Source of the DNA: Gemmatimonadota bacterium
GTDB lineage: Bacteria > Gemmatimonadota > Gemmatimonadetes > Palauibacterales > KS3-K002
NCBI GenBank assembly: GCA_039586795.1
Contig: JBDHJS010000011.1
Location: 32,001-96,000 of the forward strand
Length of the DNA: 64,000 nt
Direction: 5' to 3'
A program made the position numbers and the translations under genes. This document shows positions 38,878-56,853 of the stretch, one piece after another. How positions within the stretch are numbered: the first letter of the stretch is position 1; every line of letters starts with the position of its first letter. Under the pieces are notes generated by a model. That model had not been told where the DNA came from. It saw nothing but the letters and a program-made list of their open reading frames with translations, and ran no database searches.

Positions 38878-39579
38878 CTACCCCTTCGCGTGACACGTCG
38901 TGCAGATCTGATCCTGCGACTTCGGGATGTTGAGCGAATGGGGGTTGTTGAACTTGTTATGAACGTCGTGGCAGCTCGAGCACTGCAGCTGCCCACGGTC
39001 CAGCAACACTTCCTCCAGCGACCCAGAAACCACGTGGCCGTTGAAGGCGGTCAGATTCAGCGCCGTCGCCGAGGGCGCAACCAAGAACCCGTCGGCCGTC
39101 GCGAGAGCGTCGTCATACACGAACGAAATCGGATGGGCATGGCTCAAGTCACCATTCTGCGGATGCGGAACCGTGTAGGTCGGGTCCGCCGGCGCATACA
39201 TCGCGCCCCATCCGTACTGATCGACGCCAACCGTACCGTCATGGCAGCTCAGGCACAGAATCGCCGTGCCCGTCGGCTGACCCACGGTGGCCGCGCCGTC
39301 AAACGTCTCACTCTGAACGGCGTCGTACATCACATACGACGTGGTCGTCGACAGCTTGTGGAACCACAGCGGCTGGCCGACGCCCGGGGTGTGAGCGTTG
39401 TGGCACACCGTGCACATATCCTCGCCGCCCACGTTCCAGGTGCCCTCACCCGTGTCGTACGAGCTAGGATTGTAGTGTGTGACCCCGTCACTGAAGTCGT
39501 GCCCTGAGCCGGAGAACTGCGCCTGCGCCGGTGCGGCGACGAACAGCACAGCCAGCCCAATTAACCAGAGCTTCTTCAT
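38878..39579 (-). CDS. omcE: OmcE-like exported tetraheme cytochrome c (copy 1)
   Basis: Signal AQAQ, HDFS, CTVCHNAH, PLW, CLSCHDG, DLSHAHPISF, CSSCHDVH, terminal CTTCHAK; AAGGAG RBS. Confidence 0.75.
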   Translation of the reverse strand: MKKLWLIGLAVLFVAAPAQAQFSGSGHDFSDGVTHYNPSSYDTGEGTWNVGGEDMCTVCHNAHTPGVGQPLWFHKLSTTTSYVMYDAVQSETFDGAATVGQPTGTAILCLSCHDGTVGVDQYGWGAMYAPADPTYTVPHPQNGDLSHAHPISFVYDDALATADGFLVAPSATALNLTAFNGHVVSGSLEEVLLDRGQLQCSSCHDVHNKFNNPHSLNIPKSQDQICTTCHAKG

Positions 39580-39645
39580 TGTTTGGTCTCCTTTGGATCC
39601 CATTGCTGCGAGCCGGGTTCTGGTCGTTCCCGGCCCAGTTAAAAG

Positions 39646-39679
39646 TCCGGTTGGGGCTTAGTTACTTCCGGTTGGGGCT
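39646..39679. repeat. Tandem 13-bp direct repeat with 21-bp period in the OmcE-like gene 1 leader
   Basis: TCCGGTTGGGGCT at 39646-39658 and 39667-39679. Confidence 0.7.
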
Positions 39680-39964
39680 GACTACAACGGTCGTTTACAA
39701 CTTCCGTTTCAGTGCCTCTTCCGGCTCCTCCTTTCTTACTCGTCGGCCCGCAGATCTAACGGGGTCACGTTCCTTGATACACAACGGCGCCCGCCGGATC
39801 AGGTAGGGGGAGAGCGGTGCAATACGCATCCGTTGCCGCACAGCTCCCGAAACCGGGGGCGCCCTCAGCATGACAGGCCGCGAGTGGTCGTGGGTCCTCT
39901 CCGATGGCCCCGGCGTGCCACGCTCCCGGAGCCAAACCCATTTCCTGAATGGGCATTTCCTCAA

Positions 39965-39979
39965 GCAGATGTCGTACCA
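39965..39979 (-). promoter_or_regulatory. Candidate sigma54 (-24/-12) promoter for the left operon
   Basis: Minus strand TGGTACG-ACAT-CTGC(T); GG-N10-GC spacing. Confidence 0.55.
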
Positions 39980-40299
39980 ATCTGGGGTGGAAAGAACCAC
40001 GTGTCCCAAACCGTCCGATTGGCCAGCACCGTCCGTGTAAGGCTAACAAGAATAACTATTTAGAGAGATTGCCCTGAAGGTGCGATATGTCCCGGCGAAG
40101 CGAGGCGTTCATGCCACGTGTCGCCCTGCCTCAACGACGGCATCCGCGTTGTGGCAATACGTCACGTCGTATCAACAAGCGTTCTCGATAAGCGGTGTTG
40201 GTCAGCCCCACGGCCTGATATCACCTGACCAAAGACGTCGAGCCCCGACAGCTTGCGCTGTCGGGGCCCGCCCTCCACCCAGTCCTCGAACCAGAGGAT

Positions 40300-42219
40300 C
40301 TAGAACCTTCCTCCATCGCCGTGGCGGTGGCAGTTGTAGCAGTTTTCCTTGCCCGTCATCGAGCTGCGATCGTGACAGGTGTTGCACCACCACCCACCAC
40401 TAGTCAGGTCGGCCTTGTCCAGGTTGTTGGTGATTCCGTATTCCCACTCGGCGGCGCCTTTGCGATCCCAAAACGCCAGCGCGGTGTCATCCGGCGCCAT
40501 ACCCAGCGTCTGATCGAGAACTCGGAACAAGGTCGTCGTGCCTATGCCGGCGCTCTGGTCGATGATCACGTGATTCGAATGGCACGACCAACACGGCATC
40601 ACATCGCCTATGCCCCAGCCTATTCCGGCCCGCAGGTCCACACTCGAGCCGGTCCGAACTCCCATACCGTCGTTGACCCACGTCGTGCGGATGTTCGTGA
40701 TCGCCGTTGTCTGGTCCTGAACTGAGGACGGGAAGCTCCCATCATGACAGTCGAGACAGAATTCGCTGAGGATGTCTCCCGCCGACTGGTATGCCGTAAA
40801 ATACCAGTCCGTGCCGGGAATGTGGCCGTCGCTTGGATCGGGATCGATCAGGTACTTCTGCGCAGCGGTCAGCGTATGCGGATTATGGCAGTTCGTGCAT
40901 TCAATCTTCGCCCCGCTACGGGCCTGTGCTGGCTGCTGGATGTCGTGTCGATCATTCAGGTTCGCGTTTGACCCCAGGCCGGTAGCCGTTTGGACCCAGT
41001 TGATCGCCCGCGCGAACCCGGTCGCCAGGTCGGTGGTTGCCGGGCCATCGGAGTCATGACAGTCGAGACAGAAACCCTCTTCTTCTTCGGTCCGCGTCGT
41101 GGGGTCGGGCGCGACGTCCCCAGGGGCGAGTATTCTGGCCTTTTGCGACCCGTGGCTCGCATGACACCCGAAACTGCCATCGCCAAAGCAGCCAACGATG
41201 GCCGCCGACTGTTTGTGGGAGGCGGTAGTCCACGCCGAGGCGTCGATTAGCGGGCGAGTCAATCCATCCGAGAACGGGGCGAGCGTTCCGTTCGCGCCAT
41301 CTAGATCATGGCAAGAAACGCAGAACGCCTCCAGCTTCGCCGCCTCCGCCGACTGAGTTTGCGGGTCGCCCGTCAATATGTATACGGTCGTCGAATCATC
41401 CGCGTTCTTGAGGCGCACGTTACCCGCCTGGTGGGCGCTGAACTCGTGACAGACCAGGCAATCGCCATCCACGTACGACGCCCCGACATGGTTGCTGGCC
41501 CAGGACATCTCCGGAACGATCGGGCGGCGACTGTTCGGCCCGCTGGTGCCCTGCCCGCCCGTGTCGTGGCAGCTCCCGCACGGTCCGCCCCCGGCGAATC
41601 CGCTCTCGTGAGTGTGACAATCGGTGCAGGTCCGCCCGACTTCGTGCGTATGGTCACTGACGTCCGGAAGGTTCAGCCCGTTCTGATGGTTACTCGTCTC
41701 CGTATGGCACGCCTCGCACACACCATCGTAATCACCGTCTCCATCCTCGTCGCCGTCGGCGAACGAATGAAGCGATGGCTGCCCCGCATCGGTCCCGCGA
41801 CTCGTAAACGACACGGGCAGATCACCACTCACCGGCGTCGTCATCATCTCGCGGATCATCGATAGGTTCGCGGCCGTCTCTCCTTCATGGTCGTGACAGT
41901 CCCAACAGCCCGTTGCCGCTCGGCCGAACTCGGTGTGTCGGGCTCCGTTGTGTACCTCGAACGGACCCTTCGGAACATCTACCCAGACTCCATCCCGGTC
42001 GACCTGCGCCGGACCGGCATCGCTGTGGCACGACCAACAGAGATCTTCAACGACGTCGAATTCTCGCAGCGCGCTGAACGAGCCGCCGTGCAGGTCATGG
42101 CAAAAGCTGCAGTTGTGACTGATCTGCGCGTGTGCCGTCGCCGATTCCTGAAGCGCCGGAATGACGGGCGCGATGAGGCTCCACCCCACGAGTCCCAAGA
42201 GCCAGGCGATCGGCCTCAT
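40300..42219 (-). CDS. Exported large multiheme cytochrome c (14 CXXCH plus one CX7CH)
   Basis: 14 canonical motifs counted by hand; CFGDGSFGCH; signal peptide ending AHA; DGDEDGDGDYD loop. Confidence 0.92.
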   Translation of the reverse strand: MRPIAWLLGLVGWSLIAPVIPALQESATAHAQISHNCSFCHDLHGGSFSALREFDVVEDLCWSCHSDAGPAQVDRDGVWVDVPKGPFEVHNGARHTEFGRAATGCWDCHDHEGETAANLSMIREMMTTPVSGDLPVSFTSRGTDAGQPSLHSFADGDEDGDGDYDGVCEACHTETSNHQNGLNLPDVSDHTHEVGRTCTDCHTHESGFAGGGPCGSCHDTGGQGTSGPNSRRPIVPEMSWASNHVGASYVDGDCLVCHEFSAHQAGNVRLKNADDSTTVYILTGDPQTQSAEAAKLEAFCVSCHDLDGANGTLAPFSDGLTRPLIDASAWTTASHKQSAAIVGCFGDGSFGCHASHGSQKARILAPGDVAPDPTTRTEEEEGFCLDCHDSDGPATTDLATGFARAINWVQTATGLGSNANLNDRHDIQQPAQARSGAKIECTNCHNPHTLTAAQKYLIDPDPSDGHIPGTDWYFTAYQSAGDILSEFCLDCHDGSFPSSVQDQTTAITNIRTTWVNDGMGVRTGSSVDLRAGIGWGIGDVMPCWSCHSNHVIIDQSAGIGTTTLFRVLDQTLGMAPDDTALAFWDRKGAAEWEYGITNNLDKADLTSGGWWCNTCHDRSSMTGKENCYNCHRHGDGGRF

Positions 42220-43163
42220 TTCGCAGCGACCCCCGGATAGACCTTCACCGATGCGCTGCGATTGCTCACCACTAAGACGTCGCCATTCTTCGTGATCAGT
42301 ACGTCGGTGGGCACTCTCAGCTCGGGGCGGCCGCCGATCTCGCCCGTCAACTCCTTCGTTGCCCGGTCAAAGACCAACACCGTGCCCAACAAGGCATCCG
42401 CGACATAGATCCTGCCCCGGTCGTCCACCGCCAGACCCTGCGGTCGAGAGAACCCTCCCGGACAACTCATGCCGCAGCTCACCTCACCAGGGATCTGATC
42501 GACATGGCGACCATCATAGTCGAAGATCTTGATCGAGGCGGCGCCGCCATCCACTCCCCAGTCGCTCACCAGCAACTCGTTCCGAGCGCCGTTCACGGCG
42601 ATCCCCATCGGCGTGGCCAGCTGCTCAGGGCCGCTTCCCGGACTCGAGATCACGCGCTGCAAACCGCCCAGCTCGTCAAACACCCTCACTTCTCGAGCGC
42701 GCCCATCGAGTACGAATACCAGCCCCTGGCCGTCGTCTGCCGCCAGGTCGATCGGATACTCGACCGCTCCGGCGCCGAACGTGCCCGTTGCGCTTCCAGT
42801 TGTCGTCGAGAAGATCTCTACCGTTCGACGGGTACCGTTGCCCACGAAGATGCGATCGCCCAGAGCGACGACGCCCAACGCCTGGCCCGAGACGGCTATG
42901 CCGCGGGCTGGGGTCTGCGAGGTGGGATCGATCTCCACCACCAGGTCCAGGCGACTGTCCGTCACCAGGACTTGTCCACCTGAAGTCAGCGCGAGCCGCA
43001 ACGGCGATCTAAGAGTTATCGCGCCGAGCAAGCCGAAGGTGACTTCCTCCCCGCCTTCTTCACCCCCGGTGGGCGTTCGTTCCTCTCTCCAACAGCCGTG
43101 CGTGAATAACAGCATGCTGGCGAGCAGGCTGAACAGCACTCCACGGAAGGAAAAGACTCTCAT
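42216..43163 (-). CDS. NHL-repeat lipoprotein
   Basis: Lipobox THGC, FSRPQGLAVDDRGRIYVAD, P.GIAV repeats. Confidence 0.88.
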   Translation of the reverse strand: MRVFSFRGVLFSLLASMLLFTHGCWREERTPTGGEEGGEEVTFGLLGAITLRSPLRLALTSGGQVLVTDSRLDLVVEIDPTSQTPARGIAVSGQALGVVALGDRIFVGNGTRRTVEIFSTTTGSATGTFGAGAVEYPIDLAADDGQGLVFVLDGRAREVRVFDELGGLQRVISSPGSGPEQLATPMGIAVNGARNELLVSDWGVDGGAASIKIFDYDGRHVDQIPGEVSCGMSCPGGFSRPQGLAVDDRGRIYVADALLGTVLVFDRATKELTGEIGGRPELRVPTDVLITKNGDVLVVSNRSASVKVYPGVAAK

Positions 43164-43621: not shown

Positions 43622-43892
43622 ACTCTGTCGCAGCACTCCCCTCCGCCTATGGCGACATGTCTGAAGCCGTGAATCCCTGGAAACAACTGAGAGTCTAGCA
43701 GGACAAGCCCTAATTGTAGGGCAAGCGCTGTTTACAGGTCCCCCGCTCCGCCCCGCCAGGTCTGTCTCCCGCCGATTCCCCTGGCCCTGTTACAGCAGTT
43801 TGGACATTAGCCCGTGAGTACCGACCACTGAGACTCGACGCGGGACGCCGCGGGGCTCACGGATGATCAAACCCCGAGTTGAGGAGGGACCA

Positions 43893-44537
43893 ATGAAACG
43901 GTTGTTCAGCCTGATCACCGCCTTCATCCTGGCGGCGGCGACGACGGCGAGCGCTCAGCAGATTTCGGGTAGCGCGCACGACTTCAGCGCGGCTGCTTGG
44001 AACAGTACGGGAGAGATCTGCATCGTCTGTCACGCGCCGCATAACAATCAGAGCCCTGCCGGTGAACTAATTTGGAACCGCACTGCCAGTGCCGCGTCCT
44101 ACACGATGTACTCGAACACTAGCGGGACATTCCAGGCGTCTGCCACGATCGCGGCGACGCCAAACGCGGAGTCCAAGGTCTGCCTGAGTTGCCACGACGG
44201 CACTGTCGCACTCGAGTCATTTGGCGGCAACGGTGCCGTAACGACGACGGTGATGGGCGACGTCAACGCAGCAGCGGACGTCGGGTCGGACCTGTCGGAC
44301 GACCATCCGATCTCGTTCGACTACACGAACGCGCTTGCGACAAGCGACGGCGATCTGGCTACTCCGGGCGACAACGGTACCGCTCCCGATGGCAACATGC
44401 CGTTGTTCGGCGCGACCTATCGGATGGAGTGCGCCACGTGCCACGACGTGCACAACGATGTACCGGTTGGCAATGCCAGCCTGCTTTATGTGGACAACGC
44501 GGCCAGCGCGCTCTGTCTTACTTGTCACACCAAGTAG
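43893..44537 (+). CDS. omcE: OmcE-like exported tetraheme cytochrome c (copy 2)
   Basis: Signal ASAQ, HDFS, EICIVCHAPHN, IWNR, YTMYS, SKVCLSCHDG, GSDLSDDHPISF, MPLF, MECATCHDVH, SALCLTCHTK; GAGGAGG RBS. Confidence 0.82.
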   Translation: MKRLFSLITAFILAAATTASAQQISGSAHDFSAAAWNSTGEICIVCHAPHNNQSPAGELIWNRTASAASYTMYSNTSGTFQASATIAATPNAESKVCLSCHDGTVALESFGGNGAVTTTVMGDVNAAADVGSDLSDDHPISFDYTNALATSDGDLATPGDNGTAPDGNMPLFGATYRMECATCHDVHNDVPVGNASLLYVDNAASALCLTCHTK

Positions 44538-44654: not shown

Positions 44655-45773
44655 ATGAACAGCCACCGACTGATCCCAGTAGTGCTACTCGCCGCTGCCG
44701 CTGGAACACTGCTGACGGCGTGCTCCTCGACTGCTCCAACACCGGAGCTAACCCAGCCGCGAGAGCTGATCGTCTACCCCACCCCACCGGACACACCACG
44801 TATCCAATTCTTGACACGTTATTCGACTTCAGCTGACATCGAGCCGGAGCGACGCAGGTCGATTTGGGAGTCGATTGCGGGTGAAGACGATTCGGCGAAC
44901 GAAGAGAAGCAGATCGTCAAGCCTTACGGCGTGGCCATGGCGCAGGGCAGAATCTACGTCTGTGACACGGGCGCCATCGCGGTTGATATCATAGACATCC
45001 CGGCGCAGTCGTTGTCTCGTTTCCAGCCCCGCAGTTTTGGCAAGCTCAGTAAGCCGCTTGGCTGCTTCGCAGACGAGTCCGACGGCTCACTATTCGTCGC
45101 CGATGCTGATCGCCAGCAAGTTGTCGTTTATGGGAACGACGGATCCTATCGAGCCAGCTTCGGAGAGCGAGAGAGCATCCGACCGAGTGCCGTATTCGTC
45201 GTCGGTGACAGTATCTTCGCGGCCGATCTGAACGGACAGCGCGTCGCGGTCTACGCGCGCAGCGACCAGCGACTGCTGGGCTTCATTCCAGCCGACACGA
45301 CCGACCCGGCGGCAAGGCTATTCGCTCCCACCAACCTGTTCGTCACTAACGATCACGTGTACGTGACGGACTTCGGGTCCTTCCAGGTGAAGATCTATGA
45401 CCGCAACGGTCGGTTCGTTCGGACACTTGGGCGCTATGGGTCCGGGCTTGGACAGTTCGTTCGCCCCAAGGGCGTGGCCGTCGATCGCAACAGCAACGTC
45501 TACGTCGTCGATGCGGGCTTCGAGAACGTCCAGGTGTTCGATGCAGAGGGCAAGCTGCTGATGTTCTTTGGCGGCCCATACGAGGGCCCGGGCGACCTGT
45601 ACCTGCCGGCCGGGATCACCATCGACTATGAGAACGTCGACCTGTTCCGACACCTCGTTCATCCCGGTTTCCAACTCAAGTATCTCGTCCTCGTAACCAG
45701 CCAATACGGTCCCGACAAAGTCAACGTCTACGGCTTCATCGGCCCCGAGGAGACCCCGTCCCATGCGCCTTGA
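44655..45773 (+). CDS. NHL-repeat beta-propeller lipoprotein (paralog of 37672-38781)
   Basis: Lipobox LTAC, PTPPDTPRIQFL, FVRPKGVAVD, QYGPDKV. Confidence 0.9.
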   Translation: MNSHRLIPVVLLAAAAGTLLTACSSTAPTPELTQPRELIVYPTPPDTPRIQFLTRYSTSADIEPERRRSIWESIAGEDDSANEEKQIVKPYGVAMAQGRIYVCDTGAIAVDIIDIPAQSLSRFQPRSFGKLSKPLGCFADESDGSLFVADADRQQVVVYGNDGSYRASFGERESIRPSAVFVVGDSIFAADLNGQRVAVYARSDQRLLGFIPADTTDPAARLFAPTNLFVTNDHVYVTDFGSFQVKIYDRNGRFVRTLGRYGSGLGQFVRPKGVAVDRNSNVYVVDAGFENVQVFDAEGKLLMFFGGPYEGPGDLYLPAGITIDYENVDLFRHLVHPGFQLKYLVLVTSQYGPDKVNVYGFIGPEETPSHAP

Positions 45774-46641
45774 TACAGGCAAAACGCTCCTCGCCATCTG
45801 TCTTACCGTTGGCGCCCTTTCATGCCGCTCGGCCGCCGAATTGTTCCTCGACATCTCCGAGCCGCCGGGGAACGAGCAATATGCGCCGGCTGCTAACGTC
45901 AGTCAGTCGCAGAGCGTTATGTTAGCGGTTCCAACCGACACCGCCCGACCCCCGATCGAGAGTGTGGACGGCATGGACTCTGTGCTGGTCATGCTGCCAC
46001 AGGCGCCCGACGGAAGCATCGACTGGGTTACGGCGATTCGCGATACGGTAATCCGACCTCGGAACGCACCGCGAGGAGTTGGATCTGTTCGGGAGTCACT
46101 CAGTTTCGATTTCTACTTCGGTGAATTCGAGACCTACTTCCCCCATTCCGCCCACGCGGAGTGGATGGAATGCACCAGTTGTCACCCAACCATCTATCGC
46201 CGCCGCGGTGCCTCAACATCGATGAAGGAGATCGGGGAAGGCCAGTCCTGCGGTCGCTGCCACGGAAGTGTTGCATTCTCCACTGCCGCCTGCGAACGCT
46301 GCCACACGGCAATGAAGTTGCCGGAAGGTCGCCAAAAGCCGAATCTCGGTGCCGTCTACACGTTCTCGCGCTCGGAGACCGCAACCAATATCGCGACCGA
46401 CTCCGTCTTCCCGCCCGCGGTGTTCTCGCATGGCTTCCACCGTATACGCTATACCTGCGCGGCTTGTCACAACGATCTGTTTCCCATGGCGCGCAGCGCG
46501 CCCGGAACGGTGACGATGAAGTCGATTCAAAATGGTGAGGCATGCGGGACGTGTCATAACGGTTCGACCGCGTTCGGCGTTCTGCAGTGCGGGCTCTGCC
46601 ATCAGAAGGTCGAAAGCGACTCCGAGGGCAGTGGACCGTGA
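45763..46641 (+). CDS. Hexaheme double c7-type cytochrome lipoprotein
   Basis: Lipobox ALSC; CTSCH, CGRCH, CERCH, CAACH, CGTCH, CGLCH; IDWV motif. Confidence 0.9.
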   Translation: MRLDTGKTLLAICLTVGALSCRSAAELFLDISEPPGNEQYAPAANVSQSQSVMLAVPTDTARPPIESVDGMDSVLVMLPQAPDGSIDWVTAIRDTVIRPRNAPRGVGSVRESLSFDFYFGEFETYFPHSAHAEWMECTSCHPTIYRRRGASTSMKEIGEGQSCGRCHGSVAFSTAACERCHTAMKLPEGRQKPNLGAVYTFSRSETATNIATDSVFPPAVFSHGFHRIRYTCAACHNDLFPMARSAPGTVTMKSIQNGEACGTCHNGSTAFGVLQCGLCHQKVESDSEGSGP

Positions 46642-48563
46642 ATCGTCTGCAGTTCTTGACGGTTTGTGGACTTGCGGCGCTACTCACCGCCGGAGCGCGA
46701 GCGTCACCGGCACAGCACGTCATCAAGCTATCGCGGACCGGCGGTATCGTTGGATTGGAGTTTGATGGCTACAGTCTTCAGAACTCCTCTGGCTTCCACG
46801 ATGGCCAACGGACCTTTCGCGAATACGTCAATCTTCAAATAACAGGGTCAGTACTCGACCCCCGGGTCCTGCTCTTCGACGTCGGCCTTAGACCTCGAAT
46901 AGAACAGACCTCGTGGAACGCCACCTACGAGTCATCGAGTGGCGGCTCCACGAACCTCGACGCCCGACTGGCCGCCCACCTGTTCAGCCGCGGCAAGATC
47001 TCGCTTCAGGCAGAGGCGATGCGCCTCTCGAACAACGCGCAAGTGCGCTTTGATGAAGAACAGAGCGTTTCCTATCAAGAGCTGCGACTGCGCCTCAACA
47101 CCAGGTTCAGGCCCCTTCCCCTGTGGATCGAGCTTCGAAACCTGCAAAACAACCTCGATTTCTCTCGACCCCAGGGCGTCAGTCTCATGCGTGACGAGCA
47201 GAGTCGCTCTGTTTGGATGCGTGCTCAGAACAGCAAGACCTTTCTTGAATACCAGCACGTTGATTTCTCGGACAACCTGTACGACCGGAGAGTCGTCACC
47301 GACAGGGCTACCGCCACGCACCATATGGGTTGGGGCAAAGGTAGCAGTCTACGCTCGATTCTCACTTATTCTGATCGAGCGGGCGTTGGTCCGTTTCGCC
47401 GATTCGCTTGGAACGAATACGTCAACATCCGGCACACGCTTGACGTTCAGACTGATCTACGCTTCCGACTCTTCGACCAGGTTAGCCGCGGCCTGAAATC
47501 GAAAGGCTGGTTCGTCGATCTTCGACCGCAAACCAGACTGGCCAGAGAAGCCCACGTCGCGTTGAGTGGCCTGGCGGAACGGCGACAGTATGCGCTCGTA
47601 GACTTTCGACGTTATGAACTGAAACCGATGGCCGACGCCGCTTTCGATTTGCCTGCCGGCATGAGACTCATCGCCTCCGGCGCGGTGGGTTATCGCTGGC
47701 AAGTCCAGTCGGCCGACGAAGCATCCGTCGGAGACGTGCTGGATGAACGGCACGAGGTCGACCAGTTCGGTCGGTTCATCCTCGATGAGATTTCGGTGAT
47801 CTCGAGTTCCGTGCTCATCACCAGCGAAGACCGTTCCGTCGTTTTCGAGGAGGGGATCGACTACCAGATCTTTGAGCAGGGTCCGCGCACCGAAGTACTG
47901 TCCCTACCCGGAGGTCGTATACAGCCGCAGGACATTGTTCTGGTAAGCTATAGTTTCCGCCTCATCGATGATCTGAGCTCGGACGCTCTACTCGCCAACT
48001 ACAACGTCAATCTCCAGCTTGGCCCACTCGCCTTCTTCAACCATATGAACCTGGTGGATCCAGCTCAGCAGAGTTCACCCAGGGCTCCAGGTTCGCCAGG
48101 CTATTACCAGAATTTGCAGGCGGGAGTTGCCTATCAAAGTCGTACTCCTTTCGGATCGGTAGACGTCAGGGCCGAGTACGATGCGACAACCACCGATGCG
48201 ATCACGTATCAGATGTTCCGCGTACGGGCAACGTTGTCGGCACGACTGCTTAGAGGGATGGGCAGCACCGTCGGCGTGGCATGGCAGAACGGCCTTGCTG
48301 ACCGCGGGCGTCCAATCTCGCGCCTCGATGCAAATGCAGCGGTCAACTGGAGTCCTATCCCCCGCCTCGCACTCGTTGGCGCCCTGACGGCCTACAGGGG
48401 ACACGCCGATTTTCAACGAGATACGTTCCTCGGCTTCGGTCTCGGTGCCGAGTGGAGCCTGCGGCGACTTCGCATGTTCGCCAGGTACGACTATCGGTCA
48501 TGGGACACCCGGACTCAGCAACAGGAAAGCCGTATCCGAACCGGCATAGCACGATTCTTCTGA
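46638..48563 (+). CDS. Large outer-membrane beta-barrel (paralog of 34890-36818)
   Basis: GTG overlaps the upstream TGA; signal peptide; GS..PR.L.FDV..RP and WGKGS shared with the paralog; ends ARFF. Confidence 0.82.
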   Translation: MNRLQFLTVCGLAALLTAGARASPAQHVIKLSRTGGIVGLEFDGYSLQNSSGFHDGQRTFREYVNLQITGSVLDPRVLLFDVGLRPRIEQTSWNATYESSSGGSTNLDARLAAHLFSRGKISLQAEAMRLSNNAQVRFDEEQSVSYQELRLRLNTRFRPLPLWIELRNLQNNLDFSRPQGVSLMRDEQSRSVWMRAQNSKTFLEYQHVDFSDNLYDRRVVTDRATATHHMGWGKGSSLRSILTYSDRAGVGPFRRFAWNEYVNIRHTLDVQTDLRFRLFDQVSRGLKSKGWFVDLRPQTRLAREAHVALSGLAERRQYALVDFRRYELKPMADAAFDLPAGMRLIASGAVGYRWQVQSADEASVGDVLDERHEVDQFGRFILDEISVISSSVLITSEDRSVVFEEGIDYQIFEQGPRTEVLSLPGGRIQPQDIVLVSYSFRLIDDLSSDALLANYNVNLQLGPLAFFNHMNLVDPAQQSSPRAPGSPGYYQNLQAGVAYQSRTPFGSVDVRAEYDATTTDAITYQMFRVRATLSARLLRGMGSTVGVAWQNGLADRGRPISRLDANAAVNWSPIPRLALVGALTAYRGHADFQRDTFLGFGLGAEWSLRRLRMFARYDYRSWDTRTQQQESRIRTGIARFF

Positions 48564-49390
48564 TGGCTCGATCGACTCGACCGCTGAATCTGCTGCTGAC
48601 CCTGGCCCTGCTATCTGCTGTCCAGGTGCCTGCGTTCGCCCAGCACGACGACATCTCCGTCACCACTCCAGAGAGGTCATCAAGTGGCTGCGTGTTGTGT
48701 CACGCGTCGCACGATGCCGGGCCAACCGTCAAGAGCCTACGCATTGATCCCTTGGTCGCATCCGAATACTCAGCCGCCGGCCTCTCTCCCGCATCTCTCA
48801 GTTGCCTGCGATGTCATTCCACGTGGAGCGCCCGGCTGCGACAACCGGAGTACGTCAACTTGGGAGTGGCTCCATCCCCAGGCGGAAAGCTCTTCGGGAC
48901 CTATCTGCAGGACGATCATCCGGTAGGCGAAGCTTCGCGCCCCGGGCTACCCATGAGGGGAGACGACGCGGATCCATGGTCTAGTTCCGTCGGGATTGGA
49001 AGCGTCGTTCCGAGCCCCGGGACCCACGTACCCGAGTGCAACACCTGCCACGACCCCCATTCTCGCAACGGGCTTCTCATCGCACCCGAGGAGGAGCATT
49101 TCTTCTGCGGCGCGTGCCACGACAGGACTCAGGCCTCATCGACCACGCATACAAACGTCCCCTGCACTGGCTGTCACGCCCTCCACAACGCATCCTCGAC
49201 CAAACTTCTGGCGGAACATGATGTCGACCGGCTCTGCCTCTCCTGTCACACTGCCGCTGGCGTTCCCTCCCTGTCACGCAACTACTCCGAACGCCGAGCC
49301 GAGCTACTAAGCATGCTGGCAGTTCCACGAACGAACATGCATGGCGAGTCGCGTTCCGATCGCTGCACGGGCTGCCACCTGCCTCACTGA
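48563..49390 (+). CDS. Exported heptaheme cytochrome c
   Basis: ATG at 48563; CVLCH, CLRCH, CNTCH, CGACH, CTGCH, CLSCH, CTGCH; LQDDHPVG motif. Confidence 0.9.
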   Translation: MARSTRPLNLLLTLALLSAVQVPAFAQHDDISVTTPERSSSGCVLCHASHDAGPTVKSLRIDPLVASEYSAAGLSPASLSCLRCHSTWSARLRQPEYVNLGVAPSPGGKLFGTYLQDDHPVGEASRPGLPMRGDDADPWSSSVGIGSVVPSPGTHVPECNTCHDPHSRNGLLIAPEEEHFFCGACHDRTQASSTTHTNVPCTGCHALHNASSTKLLAEHDVDRLCLSCHTAAGVPSLSRNYSERRAELLSMLAVPRTNMHGESRSDRCTGCHLPH

Positions 49391-49526
49391 ACACCAGCAC
49401 TCTGCACCAAAAACGCCGCGGCAACTGCGCTCACGCGGGAGCGGTCGACGGCCGAGCTTCGTAAGTGCTACACTATTTGACTTTGGCTGATCGTGCCGCG
49501 ATGTTGCAGCTGTAGAGAAGACCGAA

Positions 49527-49602
49527 GCCCCGGTCGTTAAAGGGTCCTTTTGGAAGACGTTTCATTGGTCCCTCCTCAACGGCGGCCGGGGCCTATTCTT
49601 TT
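49527..49602 (+). ncRNA. Candidate antisense sRNA / 3'-UTR hairpin complementary to the RBS-start of OmcE-like gene 2
   Basis: 49558-49580 is the exact reverse complement of 43878-43900. It sits in a long imperfect stem (GCCCCGGTCG / CGGCCGGGGC) followed by TATTCTTTT. Confidence 0.5.
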
Positions 49603-49611
49603 GAAGTACGA
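49602..49611 (+). repeat. Right copy of the 10-bp direct repeat flanking the cytochrome island
   Basis: TGAAGTACGA, identical at 34081-34090. Confidence 0.5.
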
Positions 49612-49696
49612 CCTCCCTCCCTCATCTGAGACCACCGCACTCGTTGGTGGTAGGTGGCCCTCAGGCTGACACGCATAGCAGCATACCCGGTAGTGA

Positions 49697-53047
<3,351 letters not shown>

Positions 53048-53094: not shown

Positions 53095-54486
53095 CTAATG
53101 CTTGTCGAAATCGGCGACGAACGCTCGCAATACGTTTGCGTCCTCGGCGTAGTGTGTCCACAGGCACGCGACGCGACCGTCGTAGGCGCTGATGCCGTTG
53201 TAGTCTCCGAAGAAGCGGTCCGTCTGCGGCTCGAACGGCTCGTCGCTGATCCGATACTCCTCGAACGATCGCCCGCCGTCCGTCGAACGCGCCAGGTAGA
53301 CGTGGACGCCCTTGCCGTCTCGTGCCCGACGATCGTAGTAGACGATGTTGACGCTGCCATCCACCGGATCGACGCTCATCCAGGTGAAGAACTGTGCTCG
53401 GTTGTTCTTCAGCCTGTCCTGGTTGACCCGTAACGGCTCGCTCCAGGTGACGCCGTGATCTGTGGAGCGGGATAGGAACACGTCGGGGTCGCCGTGCCGC
53501 TCGTCGACCCAGTTCACGTAGACCGTGCCGCGGTGTAAACCCTCCGATATGTCCACCGCTGTGACCGGCATGCCGTTGGCCCGAGGCGTCCCCTCGATCT
53601 CGATGTCCCAGCCGCCGGGCTGCTCGAGGATGGTCCACGCATCCTTCCAGCTCGCTCCGCCATCCTTCGATAATGTGAACTCGATGCCCCGGGGACCGCT
53701 CCATGCCATGTACACCGTGCCCTCGGGTCCCGCCGCCGGGACCGCGCCCTCCACCGTGTCGTCGCTGTCCACCGCGTCGCCGCCAGGCGCCGGTATCCGC
53801 TGCGGCCGCGAAAACGTGCGCCCACCGTCGTCAGATCGCACGACATATATAAAGGATGAGTCCCGCGGCGAGTCGCTGCCGTAGCGGGTGAAGCGAGTCC
53901 ATGCGATGTAGATGCTGCCCTGGTACGGACTGTCCTTGGAGAGATCGATTCCTGGATAGGGCTTGTCCTCGAACGGAACGATGCTGTTCAGATGCTCGAC
54001 CAGGATAACTTCGTCGCCGTAGCTCAGGCCGCCATCGTCCGAGGCTCGCAGAAAGAGACCATTGCGCGGATAGACGCCCTCCGGATTCCGAAGGTGGCGG
54101 AAGCCCAGGTAGCTGCGATAGACCCGGCCTTCATGGTCGATCACGACCGCATCGTCGCCCTGCACCTTGTCCGCTGGGTTGGGCATGGCAACGGATGTCC
54201 AGGTCTTGCCACCATCCCACGATACGTAGGTGAAGTTGCTGATCTTCCACCCGTTCCAGACGCGCAGCGTGACCACCGCCGAACCGACGATGTGGTTCAC
54301 ATTCGTCGGGTCGATGGCGATCGCCGTCTCAACAGCGCTGTGTGGTCCGGTCGTCACGGCGACCGGGGCCGGTAGGTCTCGCGCCAACCCCGCTTCCGGC
54401 GGTTGCGGGGTCTGGGCGCTCGCCGTTGCCGTGAAGGCACCGGCGAGCGTCAGGGTCATGCAAAGGGCCAGAAACCGCCGGAGCAT
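53095..54486 (-). CDS. BNR/Asp-box (sialidase-like) secreted protein
   Basis: Signal peptide from the ATG at 54486; several S.DGG..W/F boxes; DKP; GDY. Confidence 0.82.
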   Translation of the reverse strand: MLRRFLALCMTLTLAGAFTATASAQTPQPPEAGLARDLPAPVAVTTGPHSAVETAIAIDPTNVNHIVGSAVVTLRVWNGWKISNFTYVSWDGGKTWTSVAMPNPADKVQGDDAVVIDHEGRVYRSYLGFRHLRNPEGVYPRNGLFLRASDDGGLSYGDEVILVEHLNSIVPFEDKPYPGIDLSKDSPYQGSIYIAWTRFTRYGSDSPRDSSFIYVVRSDDGGRTFSRPQRIPAPGGDAVDSDDTVEGAVPAAGPEGTVYMAWSGPRGIEFTLSKDGGASWKDAWTILEQPGGWDIEIEGTPRANGMPVTAVDISEGLHRGTVYVNWVDERHGDPDVFLSRSTDHGVTWSEPLRVNQDRLKNNRAQFFTWMSVDPVDGSVNIVYYDRRARDGKGVHVYLARSTDGGRSFEEYRISDEPFEPQTDRFFGDYNGISAYDGRVACLWTHYAEDANVLRAFVADFDKH

Positions 54487-54488
54487 CG

Positions 54489-56747
54489 TCACTCCTCCGT
54501 CTCCGACGCCTGCGGCCCGGCCGGCATGTTCTCCATCAAGTAGTTGGTGAGCAGCGTGTACAGATGCAGCGTCGTGCCGCGACCTTCGTAGATGCCGTGC
54601 GAACGGTTTGGGTACGGCATGATCGTGAACTGCTTGCCCGCCTCGACCAGCGCGTTGACCAACACCTCGGTGCCCTGATAGTGGACGTTGTCGTCTCCCG
54701 TACCGTGCACGATCAGAAGATTCCCTTGCAGCCGATCGGCAAACGTCACCGGCGACGACTGCTCGTACTCCGTCGGGTTGTCTTGGGGCAACCCCATGTA
54801 CCGTTCCTGATAGATCGTGTCGTACAGCCGAACGTCCGGTACCGGCGCGACGGCCATCGCCGTGCTGTAGAAATCCGGGTAGCGGAAGATCATGTTGAGG
54901 CTCATCGAGCCGCCACCGCTCCAGCCCCAGATGCCGATCCGCGCCGGATCGACGTGGGACCACTGCCCAACCGCACGCGCGGCAGCGGCCTGATCGAACG
55001 AGGCGTGGACACCGATCTTCTTGTAGACGACCTTGCGCCAGTCGCGACCGCGCGGCGCCGGCGTACCCCGATTATCGATGCTCATCACGATATAGCCCTG
55101 CTGCGTCAGCATCAGATGCCACAGGTAGTTCCTGCCCATCCACGCGTCACGCACCGTCTGTCCCCACGGCTCGCCATAGACATAGAACAGGACGGGGTAT
55201 TTCTTCGACGGGTCGAAATCCGGCGGCCGCATCTCGAACCCATCCAGCATCACGCCTTCACCGTTGTCCACGCGGAAGAAACGCGACTCGCCGCGGTCCA
55301 GCGACTCGATCGTCGCCCGCAGTCGTGCGTTGTCGACCAGCGTTCTCACCACCTCATGGTCCGGCAATCTTACCAGCTCGATGATCGGCGGCGTCATGAA
55401 GCTCGAGTAGGTGTGGAAGGCGAAGCGCGCATCGCGCGAGATCTGATACGAGTGGGTGCCCGGCTGACCGGCGGGCGTCAGGCGTTCGGCCCTCCCGCTG
55501 CCGTCCAGCGGTGTGCGATACAGGTAGCGCTGCTTCGGATCGTCCGGTGACGCGATGTAGTAGAGCCAGCCGCCGTCCTCGTCGATGTGCTGAACGCTCA
55601 CGATGTCGTAGTCGCCCGGCGTGATCAGCTGCATGTCCTGCCCATCTCGAGATATTATGTAGACATGCCGCCAACCGTCCCGCTCGCTCACCCAGGTGAA
55701 GCGCTTCCCATCGTCCAGCCATTCCAGATCCTCGACGACGTCGAGCCAGGCCTCATCCGTCTCGGTTACTATCGTCCGCGCTTCGCCGCTGCTCGCCTTG
55801 GCCAGCGTGAGCCAGTTCGTGTTCTGTAGGCGGTTCAAGTGCTGGATTACGACTTCGTCCGAATCGTCCGCCCACTCCATGCGCGGGATGTAGTTGTTCC
55901 GCGGATCGCCCTCCATCCCGATCCAGCGCGTATCACCGCCATCAGCGCTGACCACACCGACTTTGACGGCTGAGTTGGTTTCGCCGGCCTTCGGATACGG
56001 GAACTCGATAAGCCTCGGATAGAGCGAATCCGTGTTGTTGATCATCGTGAACCACGGCACGCCCTCGGTGTCGAACTGCCAGTAGGCGATCCGTTCGCCG
56101 TTCGGACTCCAGCGGAAGCCGTCGCGCAAAAAGAACTCTTCTTCGTAGACCCAATCGGACGTCCCGTTGACGATCCACTCCGATCCGTCATCGGTAAGCG
56201 CGATGATCTCGCCGCTCTCCAGGTCTTCGACGTAGATATTGTTCTCCTGGACATAGCCTACTCGGCCACCATCCGGCGAGAACTTGGCGAACATGAGCGT
56301 CGCCTCTTCGGCATCGCCGCCTACCTGGCGGAGCGCGCCCGACCCGAGATCCAGCACCCAGTAGTCGCCCCGCGTGTTCGATCGCCATACGCGCCGCGTA
56401 TTGGTGAAGATCAGCAGCTTGGATCCGTCGTCCGACCATTGATAGCCGGAGATCCACAGCGGTTGCCTGGCACCTGCCGGCGTCAGCACCGCCGCCGAGA
56501 CCAGAACTTCTCGAGCGCCCGTCTCGGGATCGTATTTCACGATCTCGCGGGCCCGCCGGTTGGCAGTGAACTCCAGGGTCGTGTAGCTGCCGTCCTCCAT
56601 CCAGCGGGCCGGCCCGAAGAACTGGCCACTGAAATCGGCGGAGGCGAAGATCCGCTCAAGGGCGAGCTCTGACGGCTGCTGCGCTAGCAGCGACGTGGCG
56701 AGCAGCATCAGGATCAGGACCGCGAAGGTCGTACGAATGCGATTCAC
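54489..56747 (-). CDS. S9B dipeptidyl-peptidase IV family protein
   Basis: DWVYEEE, YPKAG, GWSGGG nucleophile elbow, HGTGDDNVH, RSH; GTG start at 56747. Confidence 0.95.
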   Translation of the reverse strand: MNRIRTTFAVLILMLLATSLLAQQPSELALERIFASADFSGQFFGPARWMEDGSYTTLEFTANRRAREIVKYDPETGAREVLVSAAVLTPAGARQPLWISGYQWSDDGSKLLIFTNTRRVWRSNTRGDYWVLDLGSGALRQVGGDAEEATLMFAKFSPDGGRVGYVQENNIYVEDLESGEIIALTDDGSEWIVNGTSDWVYEEEFFLRDGFRWSPNGERIAYWQFDTEGVPWFTMINNTDSLYPRLIEFPYPKAGETNSAVKVGVVSADGGDTRWIGMEGDPRNNYIPRMEWADDSDEVVIQHLNRLQNTNWLTLAKASSGEARTIVTETDEAWLDVVEDLEWLDDGKRFTWVSERDGWRHVYIISRDGQDMQLITPGDYDIVSVQHIDEDGGWLYYIASPDDPKQRYLYRTPLDGSGRAERLTPAGQPGTHSYQISRDARFAFHTYSSFMTPPIIELVRLPDHEVVRTLVDNARLRATIESLDRGESRFFRVDNGEGVMLDGFEMRPPDFDPSKKYPVLFYVYGEPWGQTVRDAWMGRNYLWHLMLTQQGYIVMSIDNRGTPAPRGRDWRKVVYKKIGVHASFDQAAAARAVGQWSHVDPARIGIWGWSGGGSMSLNMIFRYPDFYSTAMAVAPVPDVRLYDTIYQERYMGLPQDNPTEYEQSSPVTFADRLQGNLLIVHGTGDDNVHYQGTEVLVNALVEAGKQFTIMPYPNRSHGIYEGRGTTLHLYTLLTNYLMENMPAGPQASETEE

Positions 56748-56853
56748 GTGATTCTCCTTCGTTGGTTTGTTGAGGGCCGCGCGAAATCTACCCCGGGGCC
56801 GGGTTTCGCGCACCTGCTGAGATGGGGAGAATCCTAGGAGAACTGAGGAGTTC

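Follow-up and report, generated by a model that had tools for sequence, protein, structure and literature searches.

A candidate anti-Shine-Dalgarno small RNA and its predicted target, the ribosome-binding site of an OmcE-like cytochrome gene in Gemmatimonadota

The locus and its inverted pair

The stretch analysed here, referred to as the window, comprises 64,000 nt of a Gemmatimonadota genome (GenBank contig JBDHJS010000011.1), in which a plus-strand operon beginning with a gene for an OmcE-like tetrahaem cytochrome is followed by a short hairpin-forming element that carries an exact antisense copy of the start of that gene. The genome of the window (G000) is a metagenome-assembled draft of 4,675,178 bp in 107 contigs and is 97.8% complete. 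The features on which the argument rests are the following, in window coordinates.

43878..43900, plus strand: predicted target, the translation start region of the OmcE-like gene (Shine-Dalgarno sequence GGAGG at 43883-43887, a 5-nt spacer, ATG at 43893-43895 and the next 5 nt)
43893..44537, plus strand: OmcE-like tetrahaem cytochrome of 214 aa, first gene of the operon (Pfam Paired_CXXCH_1; PDB matches)
44655..49390, plus strand: the remainder of the operon, four genes (open reading frames and Pfam)
49477..49484, plus strand: TTGACTTT box, -35-like, invariant in all four versions of the element (alignment)
49500..49505, plus strand: -10-like hexamer GATGTT, 17 nt after TTGACT (alignment)
49513..49603, plus strand: predicted small RNA of about 91 nt (fold and alignment; covariance-model scores of 105 and 91 bits)
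49527..49592, plus strand: long hairpin with an outer 12-bp stem (49527-49538 with 49581-49592) that includes three U-G pairs
49558..49580, plus strand: the 23 nt complementary to the target, with an invariant core, GGUCCCUCCUCAAC, at 49567-49580 in all four versions
49593..49603, plus strand: U-rich tail CUAUUCUUUUG after the stem, with comparable tails in the other versions

The 23-mer GTTGAGGAGGGACCAATGAAACG was found at 43878-43900 on the plus strand and its exact reverse complement at 49558-49580, as a first-pass annotation of the window had reported, and the left copy does span the Shine-Dalgarno (SD) sequence and ATG of the tetrahaem gene. That annotation had also held that an exact 23-mer would not be expected by chance, and this was borne out: two matches occurred in none of 100 dinucleotide-preserving shuffles of the window, and when up to three mismatches were allowed the whole genome gave just these two sites. 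The sequence GAGGAGGGACC is likewise present in G000 at the two sites only. As a baseline, a second exact 23-nt copy was sought genome-wide, in either orientation, for a crude set of 3155 start codons with an SD sequence upstream; eight of these starts have such a copy, and the OmcE-like pair is the only one of the eight with both copies on one contig. For at least four of the other seven, the start site itself lies less than 100 nt from the start of a contig, which suggests that they reflect assembly overlap. Similarity between the right copy and the real gene start ends sharply at both ends of the 23 nt.

Four sequencing runs were available as assembled contigs only, and hence without strand, ends or expression level. 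A separate (Logan) contig of run X1, which is possibly the window's own source sample, spans 49261-49720 with no differences, and the context of the right arm is also reproduced in separately assembled contigs of runs X2 and X19. Both features of the pair recur in G018, a genome of another genus, and misassembly, which had been named beforehand as a possible refutation, is unlikely.

Conservation and distribution of the element

Comparisons were made with two other genera of the same Gemmatimonadota family, represented by G018 and G003, and with the metagenome contig L044. A 501-nt query centred on the right copy matched 2 of 41 related genomes, G000 included, and the match in G018 was confined to window positions 49525-49599, at 86% identity. 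The OmcE-like proteins of these two genomes are just 46% identical, and against this background the element is an island of conservation. R1, a covariance model based on the G000 and G018 copies, found a third copy, in G003 (E 7e-12), bringing the true copies to 3 among 31 genomes of the family and 3 among 145 of the order. Three of ten matches in a metagenome scan were true, two of them near-identical to G018 (99.97% and 99.69%) and the third a new version, L044; an exact-pattern scan of species-representative genomes returned ten stretches, one of them true (L023, a G018 contig). A second model built from all four versions (R2) was run on 151 genomes, G000 among them, sampled evenly across the phylum, and yielded no further true copy. 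Its matches in eight other genomes, at nine places, were all rejected as plain terminators or unrelated sequence without the core; weak R1 matches in G089 and G114 (order) and in G023 (family) were ordinary terminators, and a weak R1 match in G009 had an E of 0.6. Judged from these searches, the family is narrow. Conservation of the element, whose absence from homologous loci the first-pass annotation had listed as refuting its proposals, was observed in three genera and in L044, the loci of G003 and L044 both being cut by contig ends. The contigs of run X2 contain insertions inside the element (+G after 49566 and +GG after 49579), which suggest further natural variants.

Structure of the predicted RNA

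In the versions other than that of G000, the -10-like hexamers are TAATTT, TAGGTT and TAAGTT, at 16, 16 and 18 nt after TTGACT (spacings counted by hand), and the spacer between box and hexamer is unconserved. Judging from the -10-like hexamer, the 5' end of the small RNA would lie near 49513, and a leader of 20-23 nt precedes the hairpin in all versions. The long imperfect hairpin with a U-rich end that had been described around the right copy was confirmed by folding. Over its 91 nt the computed fold reaches -37.1 kcal/mol (z-score -2.56), and one of 200 shuffles was as stable. Within the outer stem, the inner helices are AGGG/CCCU followed by the apical UGGAA-GACG-UUUCA, and the apical hairpin varies among versions. 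The last seven nucleotides of the invariant core, CCUCAAC (49574-49580), occupy the 3' side of an internal loop, where their predicted probability of being unpaired is at least 0.9 in both G000 and G018.

In all four versions the plus strand folds better than the minus strand (-37.1, -38.7, -34.2 and -37.9 vs. -30.9, -35.2, -29.5 and -34.3 kcal/mol), and the z-scores follow suit (-2.56, -4.52, -1.91 and -2.45 vs. -1.21, -2.98, -0.77 and -1.67). The U-G pairs of the outer stem would read as A-C mismatches on the other strand, and several one-sided changes among versions keep the pair; both the U-G pairs and these pairing-preserving changes fit an RNA of the plus strand. Of the features of an intrinsic terminator, a GC-rich outer stem (12 bp here and 10-13 bp across the four versions) and a U-rich tail are seen in all four, but the stem encloses about 42 nt and the U run is interrupted. 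A search of Rfam 15 with cmscan over window positions 49300-49800, on both strands and at E values up to 10, found no family matching the element; the sole return was a 14-nt chance match to CRISPR-DR45 (E 9.1) outside it. The layout shared by the four versions adds up, at the level of sequence, to a candidate for a small, independently transcribed plus-strand RNA of about 90 nt.

Genomic context

In G000, the box begins 87 nt and the hairpin 137 nt past the last stop codon of the operon, and a terminator scan called none between that stop (49390) and the element. The arrangement in G018 is different. There, the OmcE-like homologue is followed by open reading frames (ORFs) that agree with those of G000 in order and size and end at L019:6021 (the last two were scanned with Pfam), and the element is found at L019:17535-17609, 11.5 kb beyond the operon. 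The interval holds nine genes on both strands, four of them on the opposite strand, which include glycosyltransferases, sulfotransferases, a flippase-like protein, a DUF354 protein and a TPR protein, and the two genes that directly flank the element are both on the opposite strand. The element of G018 is therefore neither the terminator of the operon nor part of its mRNA, and it is conserved there together with its promoter-like box. The element shares contig and strand with the operon in both genomes that allow this to be seen.

On the far side of the element, G000 and the G018-like contig L048 both carry a BNR-repeat gene (window 53095-54963, minus strand), and the stretch of G003 that matches the window falls at the overlap of the annotated BNR and DPP IV (window 54489-56813, minus strand) ORFs. 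What separates the element from this BNR/DPP IV pair varies: G000 has a GH2 beta-galactosidase, G003 a 270-aa ORF that is methyltransferase-like by eye, and G018 other genes. In G020 the operon directly abuts the BNR homologue, and both the element and the target motif are absent; in G005 an ORF that looks by eye like a GH2 beta-galactosidase at its N-terminus comes next after the operon, and the element is absent. In a check of the DNA downstream of operons without the element, R1 run with filters off on G005, G020, G012, G017 and the G011 locus gave nothing above 10 bits, and an alignment of the operon-to-lacZ spacer of G005 with the spacer of the window was unconvincing. This context suggests vertical inheritance of the element, and the simplest history would be that it was inherited vertically at the 3' side of the operon, with insertions and losses later. 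The 11.5 kb that separate operon and element in G018 correspond to a polysaccharide cluster (L019 6064-17168) with GT4 and GT2 glycosyltransferases and two sulfotransferases, which is absent here in G000.

Predicted pairing with the OmcE-like start region

The core of the element is complementary to a conserved motif immediately before the OmcE-like ATG. Of 11 homologous loci examined, six have TTGAGGAGGGA at this place (G000, G005, G010, G011, G017 and G018). It occurs as the variant GTTGAGGAGGGACC in G000, G018 and G010, as ATTGAGGAGGGACC in G017, as GTTGAGGAGGGAGG in G005 and as CTTGAGGAGGGAGT in G011, and the 5' untranslated regions (5'UTRs) around it align poorly. In G018, the 12-mer TTGAGGAGGGAC is found exactly twice in the assembly, once in the OmcE-like start region and once in the element.

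In G000 the computed duplex is perfect over all 23 bp. In G018 the first 16 bp are perfect (ACGUUGAGGAGGGACC); a small internal loop then spans the AUG, and beyond it GAAACG falls within a helix of 8 bp. The net pairing energies, taken as the region-restricted duplex energy plus the opening energies of both partners, are -22.0 kcal/mol for G000 and -18.4 kcal/mol for G018. The 14 invariant nucleotides reach past the SD sequence on both sides, pairing resumes beyond the AUG in both genomes, and at least 16 nt of the site pair are conserved in the two genera.

Several sites near these start regions were noted by eye. A complement of the start motif lies just upstream of it in G018 (CUCAAC-GUUGAG; L009 1440-1500), in G017 (CCUCAA-UUGAGG; L011) and in G005 (CCUCA-ga-GUUGAGG; L007), and such a local complement could form a small hairpin hiding the SD sequence. 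In G018, a terminator-like hairpin with a run of seven Ts lies about 25 nt before the SD sequence.

Interpretation

The sequence features of the element, their conservation, the folding bias towards one strand, the uniqueness of the site and the favourable computed energies are the observations from which we start. We favour, at somewhat better than even confidence, the reading that the element encodes an anti-Shine-Dalgarno small RNA with its own promoter, whose effect on the cytochrome subunit, like that of OppZ, PcrX and the icaR 3'UTR on their targets, would be translational repression. The antisense 23-mer would then serve for target recognition within a plus-strand small RNA of about 90 nt, at roughly 49513-49603. 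Transcription would start from the element's own sigma-70-type promoter (TTGACT, 17 nt, GATGTT), although in G000 read-through from the cytochrome operon may also yield the RNA, and it would end at the element's own long hairpin and U-rich tail. The unpaired CCUCAAC of the internal loop could then make the first contact with GUUGAGG, which the OmcE-like mRNA carries in its start region, and the duplex would extend over the SD sequence and, in G000, also over the AUG and codons 2-3 to give the 23 perfect bp. Binding of the 30S subunit would thereby be blocked, and less of the filament-forming cytochrome subunit would be made. Classical occlusion of the ribosome-binding site is the likely mechanism; transcription, the 5' end, repression as the direction of the effect and any cleavage of the duplex are points that we infer only.

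The first of three hypotheses in the first-pass annotation, that a small RNA or fold-back element from the 3' end of the operon represses the subunit, is favoured in its small RNA form by the comparative evidence, that is, by the presence of the element in three genera, its promoter-like box, its strand-specific fold and its accessible invariant core. It has to be modified in that the element appears to have its own promoter and in that it lies 11.5 kb away between opposite-strand genes in G018. Its corollary, that repression balances the subunit against an export machinery, found no backing, as a Pfam scan of the operon gave no evidence that the other genes encode such machinery.

The nearest functional precedents are, by analogy, OppZ and CarZ of Vibrio cholerae and PcrX of Rhodobacter sphaeroides, small RNAs derived from a 3'UTR that pair with a cistron of their own operon in negative feedback: OppZ inhibits translation of oppB, CarZ that of a cistron of its own operon, and PcrX destabilises pufLMX (PMC9438474). 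The element of G000 resembles them in its position at the 3' end of a polycistronic operon and in its computed pairing with a cistron beside it. The three known RNAs are cut by RNase E from a parent mRNA, promoterless, dependent on Hfq and imperfectly paired with their targets, whereas the element has a promoter-like box, matches a first cistron over 23 perfect bp and is detached from the operon in G018. Moreover, Hfq was not found in the G000 draft, and the element has no sequence homology to them. In particular, the conserved promoter-like box argues against release from a parent mRNA by RNase E.

A second precedent is icaR of Staphylococcus aureus, where a 3' UCCCCUG anti-SD motif pairs with the SD sequence, blocks initiation and creates double-stranded RNA (PMC3868564). 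The likeness lies in a C-rich anti-SD sequence in a 3' region directed against the SD sequence of an upstream gene. There, however, a single gene is involved, both UTRs are on one mRNA and the process depends on RNase III, whereas the element would act across 5.7 kb and five genes, probably has its own promoter, and stands in a genome in which an RNase III domain was not found.

Trans-acting anti-SD RNAs that occlude ribosome-binding sites include cuckoo, CcsR and NfeR1 of alphaproteobacteria, with CCUCCUCCC loops, and the C-rich RsaE/RoxS. RNAs of the cuckoo/CcsR type have several short hairpins with CCUCCUCCC in the apical loops, and many targets. They are a looser analogue, similar to the element in presenting a C-rich, 16S-like anti-SD sequence in an unpaired region. 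The element differs in being a single long hairpin, in having GGUCCCUCCUCAAC in the 3' strand of an internal loop, and in matching one gene specifically over a long stretch. Small RNAs with a promoter near the end of an upstream gene or operon are similar in that the terminator is shared with the parent mRNA; such RNAs act on unrelated mRNAs, however, rather than on the operon that they belong to. Neither Rfam nor the open-access literature searched yielded a described small RNA from Gemmatimonadota, and the same literature gave no case of small-RNA control of OmcE-type cytochrome "nanowire" genes.

Several observations weigh against the favoured reading. First, four genomes (G005, G010, G011 and G017) keep TTGAGGAGGGA and the element was not found in them; the contig of G010 ends inside the operon, and the downstream DNA of G005 and G017 was read and lacks the element. 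Because these genomes keep the motif, its conservation is independent of the element, and the target motif appears to be older or more widespread than its proposed regulator. Another cause of its conservation may perhaps be a very strong SD sequence or local hairpins with the upstream CUCAAC or CCUCA. Second, the converse case is G003, in which no OmcE-like target gene was found (the assembly is 71% complete). Third, neither Hfq (PF17209) nor RNase III (PF14622, PF00636) was found in the G000 draft, with the RNase III models being of limited sensitivity, as they were detected in just 8 of 14 control genomes; icaR-like cleavage of the duplex is unsupported because no RNase III domain was found. 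Fourth, the alignment has few sequences, four distinct versions from three genera of one family and one metagenome contig, and only 2 of 23 consensus pairs have changes on both sides. Fifth, a simple promoter scan with a threshold of 9 of 12 hexamer positions made no call at the box in G000 (8 of 12) or in G018, and the terminator scan made none at the element, whose loop exceeds the limit of the scan. Finally, the only RNA-library data are strandless assembled contigs with possible carry-over of DNA: run X19 gave two identical pieces, 49135-49394 and 49394-49575, and the pieces from X19 and X20 may be DNA.

Of the alternatives, the one that survives best is that the conserved structure, whether RNA or DNA, serves a different purpose (it might bind a protein, insulate as a terminator or give a small RNA for other targets), and that its complementarity is incidental, arising from common descent from a copied gene start or from mimicry of a strong SD sequence. 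We regard this as unlikely. In its favour are the four genomes with the motif in which the element was not found, the fact that the core CCCUCCUC is a generic anti-SD sequence, and the GACG loop found in both the apical hairpin of the element and the conserved 5'UTR motif of the target gene. A further point in its favour is a second start region in G000, at C30:67333-67348, which matches 16 contiguous nucleotides of the element (GCCGTTGAGGAGGGAC) 2 nt before an ATG. The gene concerned is a 541-aa ORF, sodium:solute symporter-like by eye, and an equivalent site is absent in G018; the C30 site could be either a second, lineage-specific target or a chance match. An incidental match, however, sits poorly with a complementary 12-mer unique to the OmcE-like start in G018 and with GAGGAGGGACC at two sites only in G000, with invariant nucleotides that exceed the SD sequence on both sides and pairing that resumes after the AUG in both genomes, and with the position of the element on the same contig and strand as the operon.

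It is also conceivable, but improbable, that the match works within one molecule as in icaR, with a promoterless 3'UTR of the 5.7-kb operon mRNA folding back on its own 5' start. The documented icaR precedent (PMC3868564) speaks for it, as do the absence of a called terminator between 49390 and the element in G000 and the continuity of the RNA-library contigs from the last gene into the element. An anti-SD motif and an SD sequence on the same mRNA are possible in G000 but impossible in G018, where the element is still conserved with four opposite-strand genes in between; because of this position, fold-back of a single mRNA is not the general mechanism. Also at odds with it are the TTGACTTT box and -10-like hexamer, conserved 42-46 nt upstream of the stem.

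Less probable again is the suggestion, also made in the first-pass annotation, that the right copy is a relic of a duplicated gene start or part of a small protein gene on the minus strand. The frame in question does read as described:

49473..49565, minus strand: ORF of 30 aa, MKRLPKGPFNDRGFGLLYSCNIAARSAKVK followed by a stop, not conserved and probably not a gene

In G000, the SD sequence, spacing, ATG and next 5 nt are identical to those of the real gene and 30 codons are open, and similarity to the start region past the core (GAAACG) is also seen in G018 and L044. The gene itself is unsupported, however, as the ATG is present in only one of four versions (AACG in G018, AAAG in L044, absent in G003) and the frame of G018 stops within a few codons (by eye). 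There is no similarity to the gene outside the 23 nt, folding favours the plus strand and the promoter-like box faces in the direction opposite to the ORF. Identity of 78-86% between genera would not have been retained by a neutral relic, and a passive relic is insufficient because it leaves this conservation unexplained. An ancient origin by copying of the gene start is a separate matter and is conceivable. One tentative version of it, which we think doubtful, is that the small RNA gene arose from an inverted copy of the start of its own target, as has been proposed for young plant microRNA genes, and was kept matched (perfectly over 23 nt in G000), possibly by gene conversion between the two sites, as a dedicated single-target governor at the end of the operon that caps synthesis of the filament-forming OmcE-like subunit or couples it to the other four products of the operon.

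The remaining proposal, that the two 23-mers are inverted repeats enabling inversion of the operon (phase variation), is very improbable and found no support. A perfect 23-bp inverted repeat does bracket the whole operon, but no Resolvase-family (serine recombinase) gene was found in the genome, and its three Phage_integrase-family (tyrosine recombinase) genes lie elsewhere than C79, on contigs C85, C50 and C22. Neither arm showed a joint in the four runs, the left arm (43700-43900) being without cover in all four; the arms in G018 are imperfect and 17 kb apart; and inversion leaves the hairpin, promoter box and tail unexplained. A chance match or an assembly artefact is hardly credible even for a metagenome-assembled draft of 107 contigs, given the shuffles without a match, the separately assembled X1, X2 and X19 contigs (X1 being possibly the source sample) and the recurrence of both features in G018.

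Should the favoured reading be true, the element would be a concrete regulator of extracellular electron-transfer filaments in marine-sediment bacteria (a habitat taken from the labels of the four runs only). An RNA whose gene neighbours the operon that it targets, and which matches the ribosome-binding site of the first gene perfectly over 23 bp, would also make an unusually clean example of its kind. As it stands, the element is a candidate for a new small RNA family of narrow distribution, with the ribosome-binding site of the adjacent OmcE-like gene as its predicted target.

Operon genes and further observations

Along its entire length the 214-aa cytochrome matches two PDB chains, 9yuq_N (E 4e-30) and 7tfs_A (E 6e-26), the latter of which we take to be the Geobacter OmcE filament. 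Its start was placed at 43893 rather than at the upstream in-frame ATG at 43863, since this choice results in a signal-peptide-like N-terminus (MKRLFSL...) common to the homologues. The other four genes of the operon, and the genes of a second, divergent cytochrome cluster upstream of it (window 38884-43163, minus strand), are as follows.

44655-45773, plus strand: NHL beta-propeller (Pfam)
45763-46641, plus strand: c7-type cytochrome (Pfam)
46587-48563, plus strand: 658-aa protein with no Pfam match
48452-49390, plus strand: multihaem cytochrome, ending at 49390
42216-43163, minus strand: NHL protein of the divergent cluster
40300-42219, minus strand: 639-aa multihaem cytochrome of the divergent cluster
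38884-39600, minus strand: OmcE-like paralogue, 38% identical to the first gene of the operon

A search of Rfam with the target-gene 5'UTRs of G000 and G018 returned nothing relevant, including for a GGGACGC(C) motif (window 43840-43860) that is found about 45 nt upstream of the SD sequence in five of eight orthologous 5'UTRs. In G000, G020 and G017 the site of this motif can form a small hairpin, CNCGG-GACG-CCGNG, with a compensatory change in G020, and the same GACG loop is found at the tip of the element's apical hairpin in G000, G018 and L044.

A different long hairpin is present in an intergenic region of G011 (C468; L064 about 1440-1560), where GGGGAAACC...GGUUUCCCC is followed by UUUCGCC. 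It had no covariance-model match and no TTGAC within about 250 nt upstream. Its apical region bears UCCCUCCUCAACGG, 12 nt of which are complementary to the OmcE-like start region of G011 itself, and the 11-mer concerned is too common in that genome to exclude chance.

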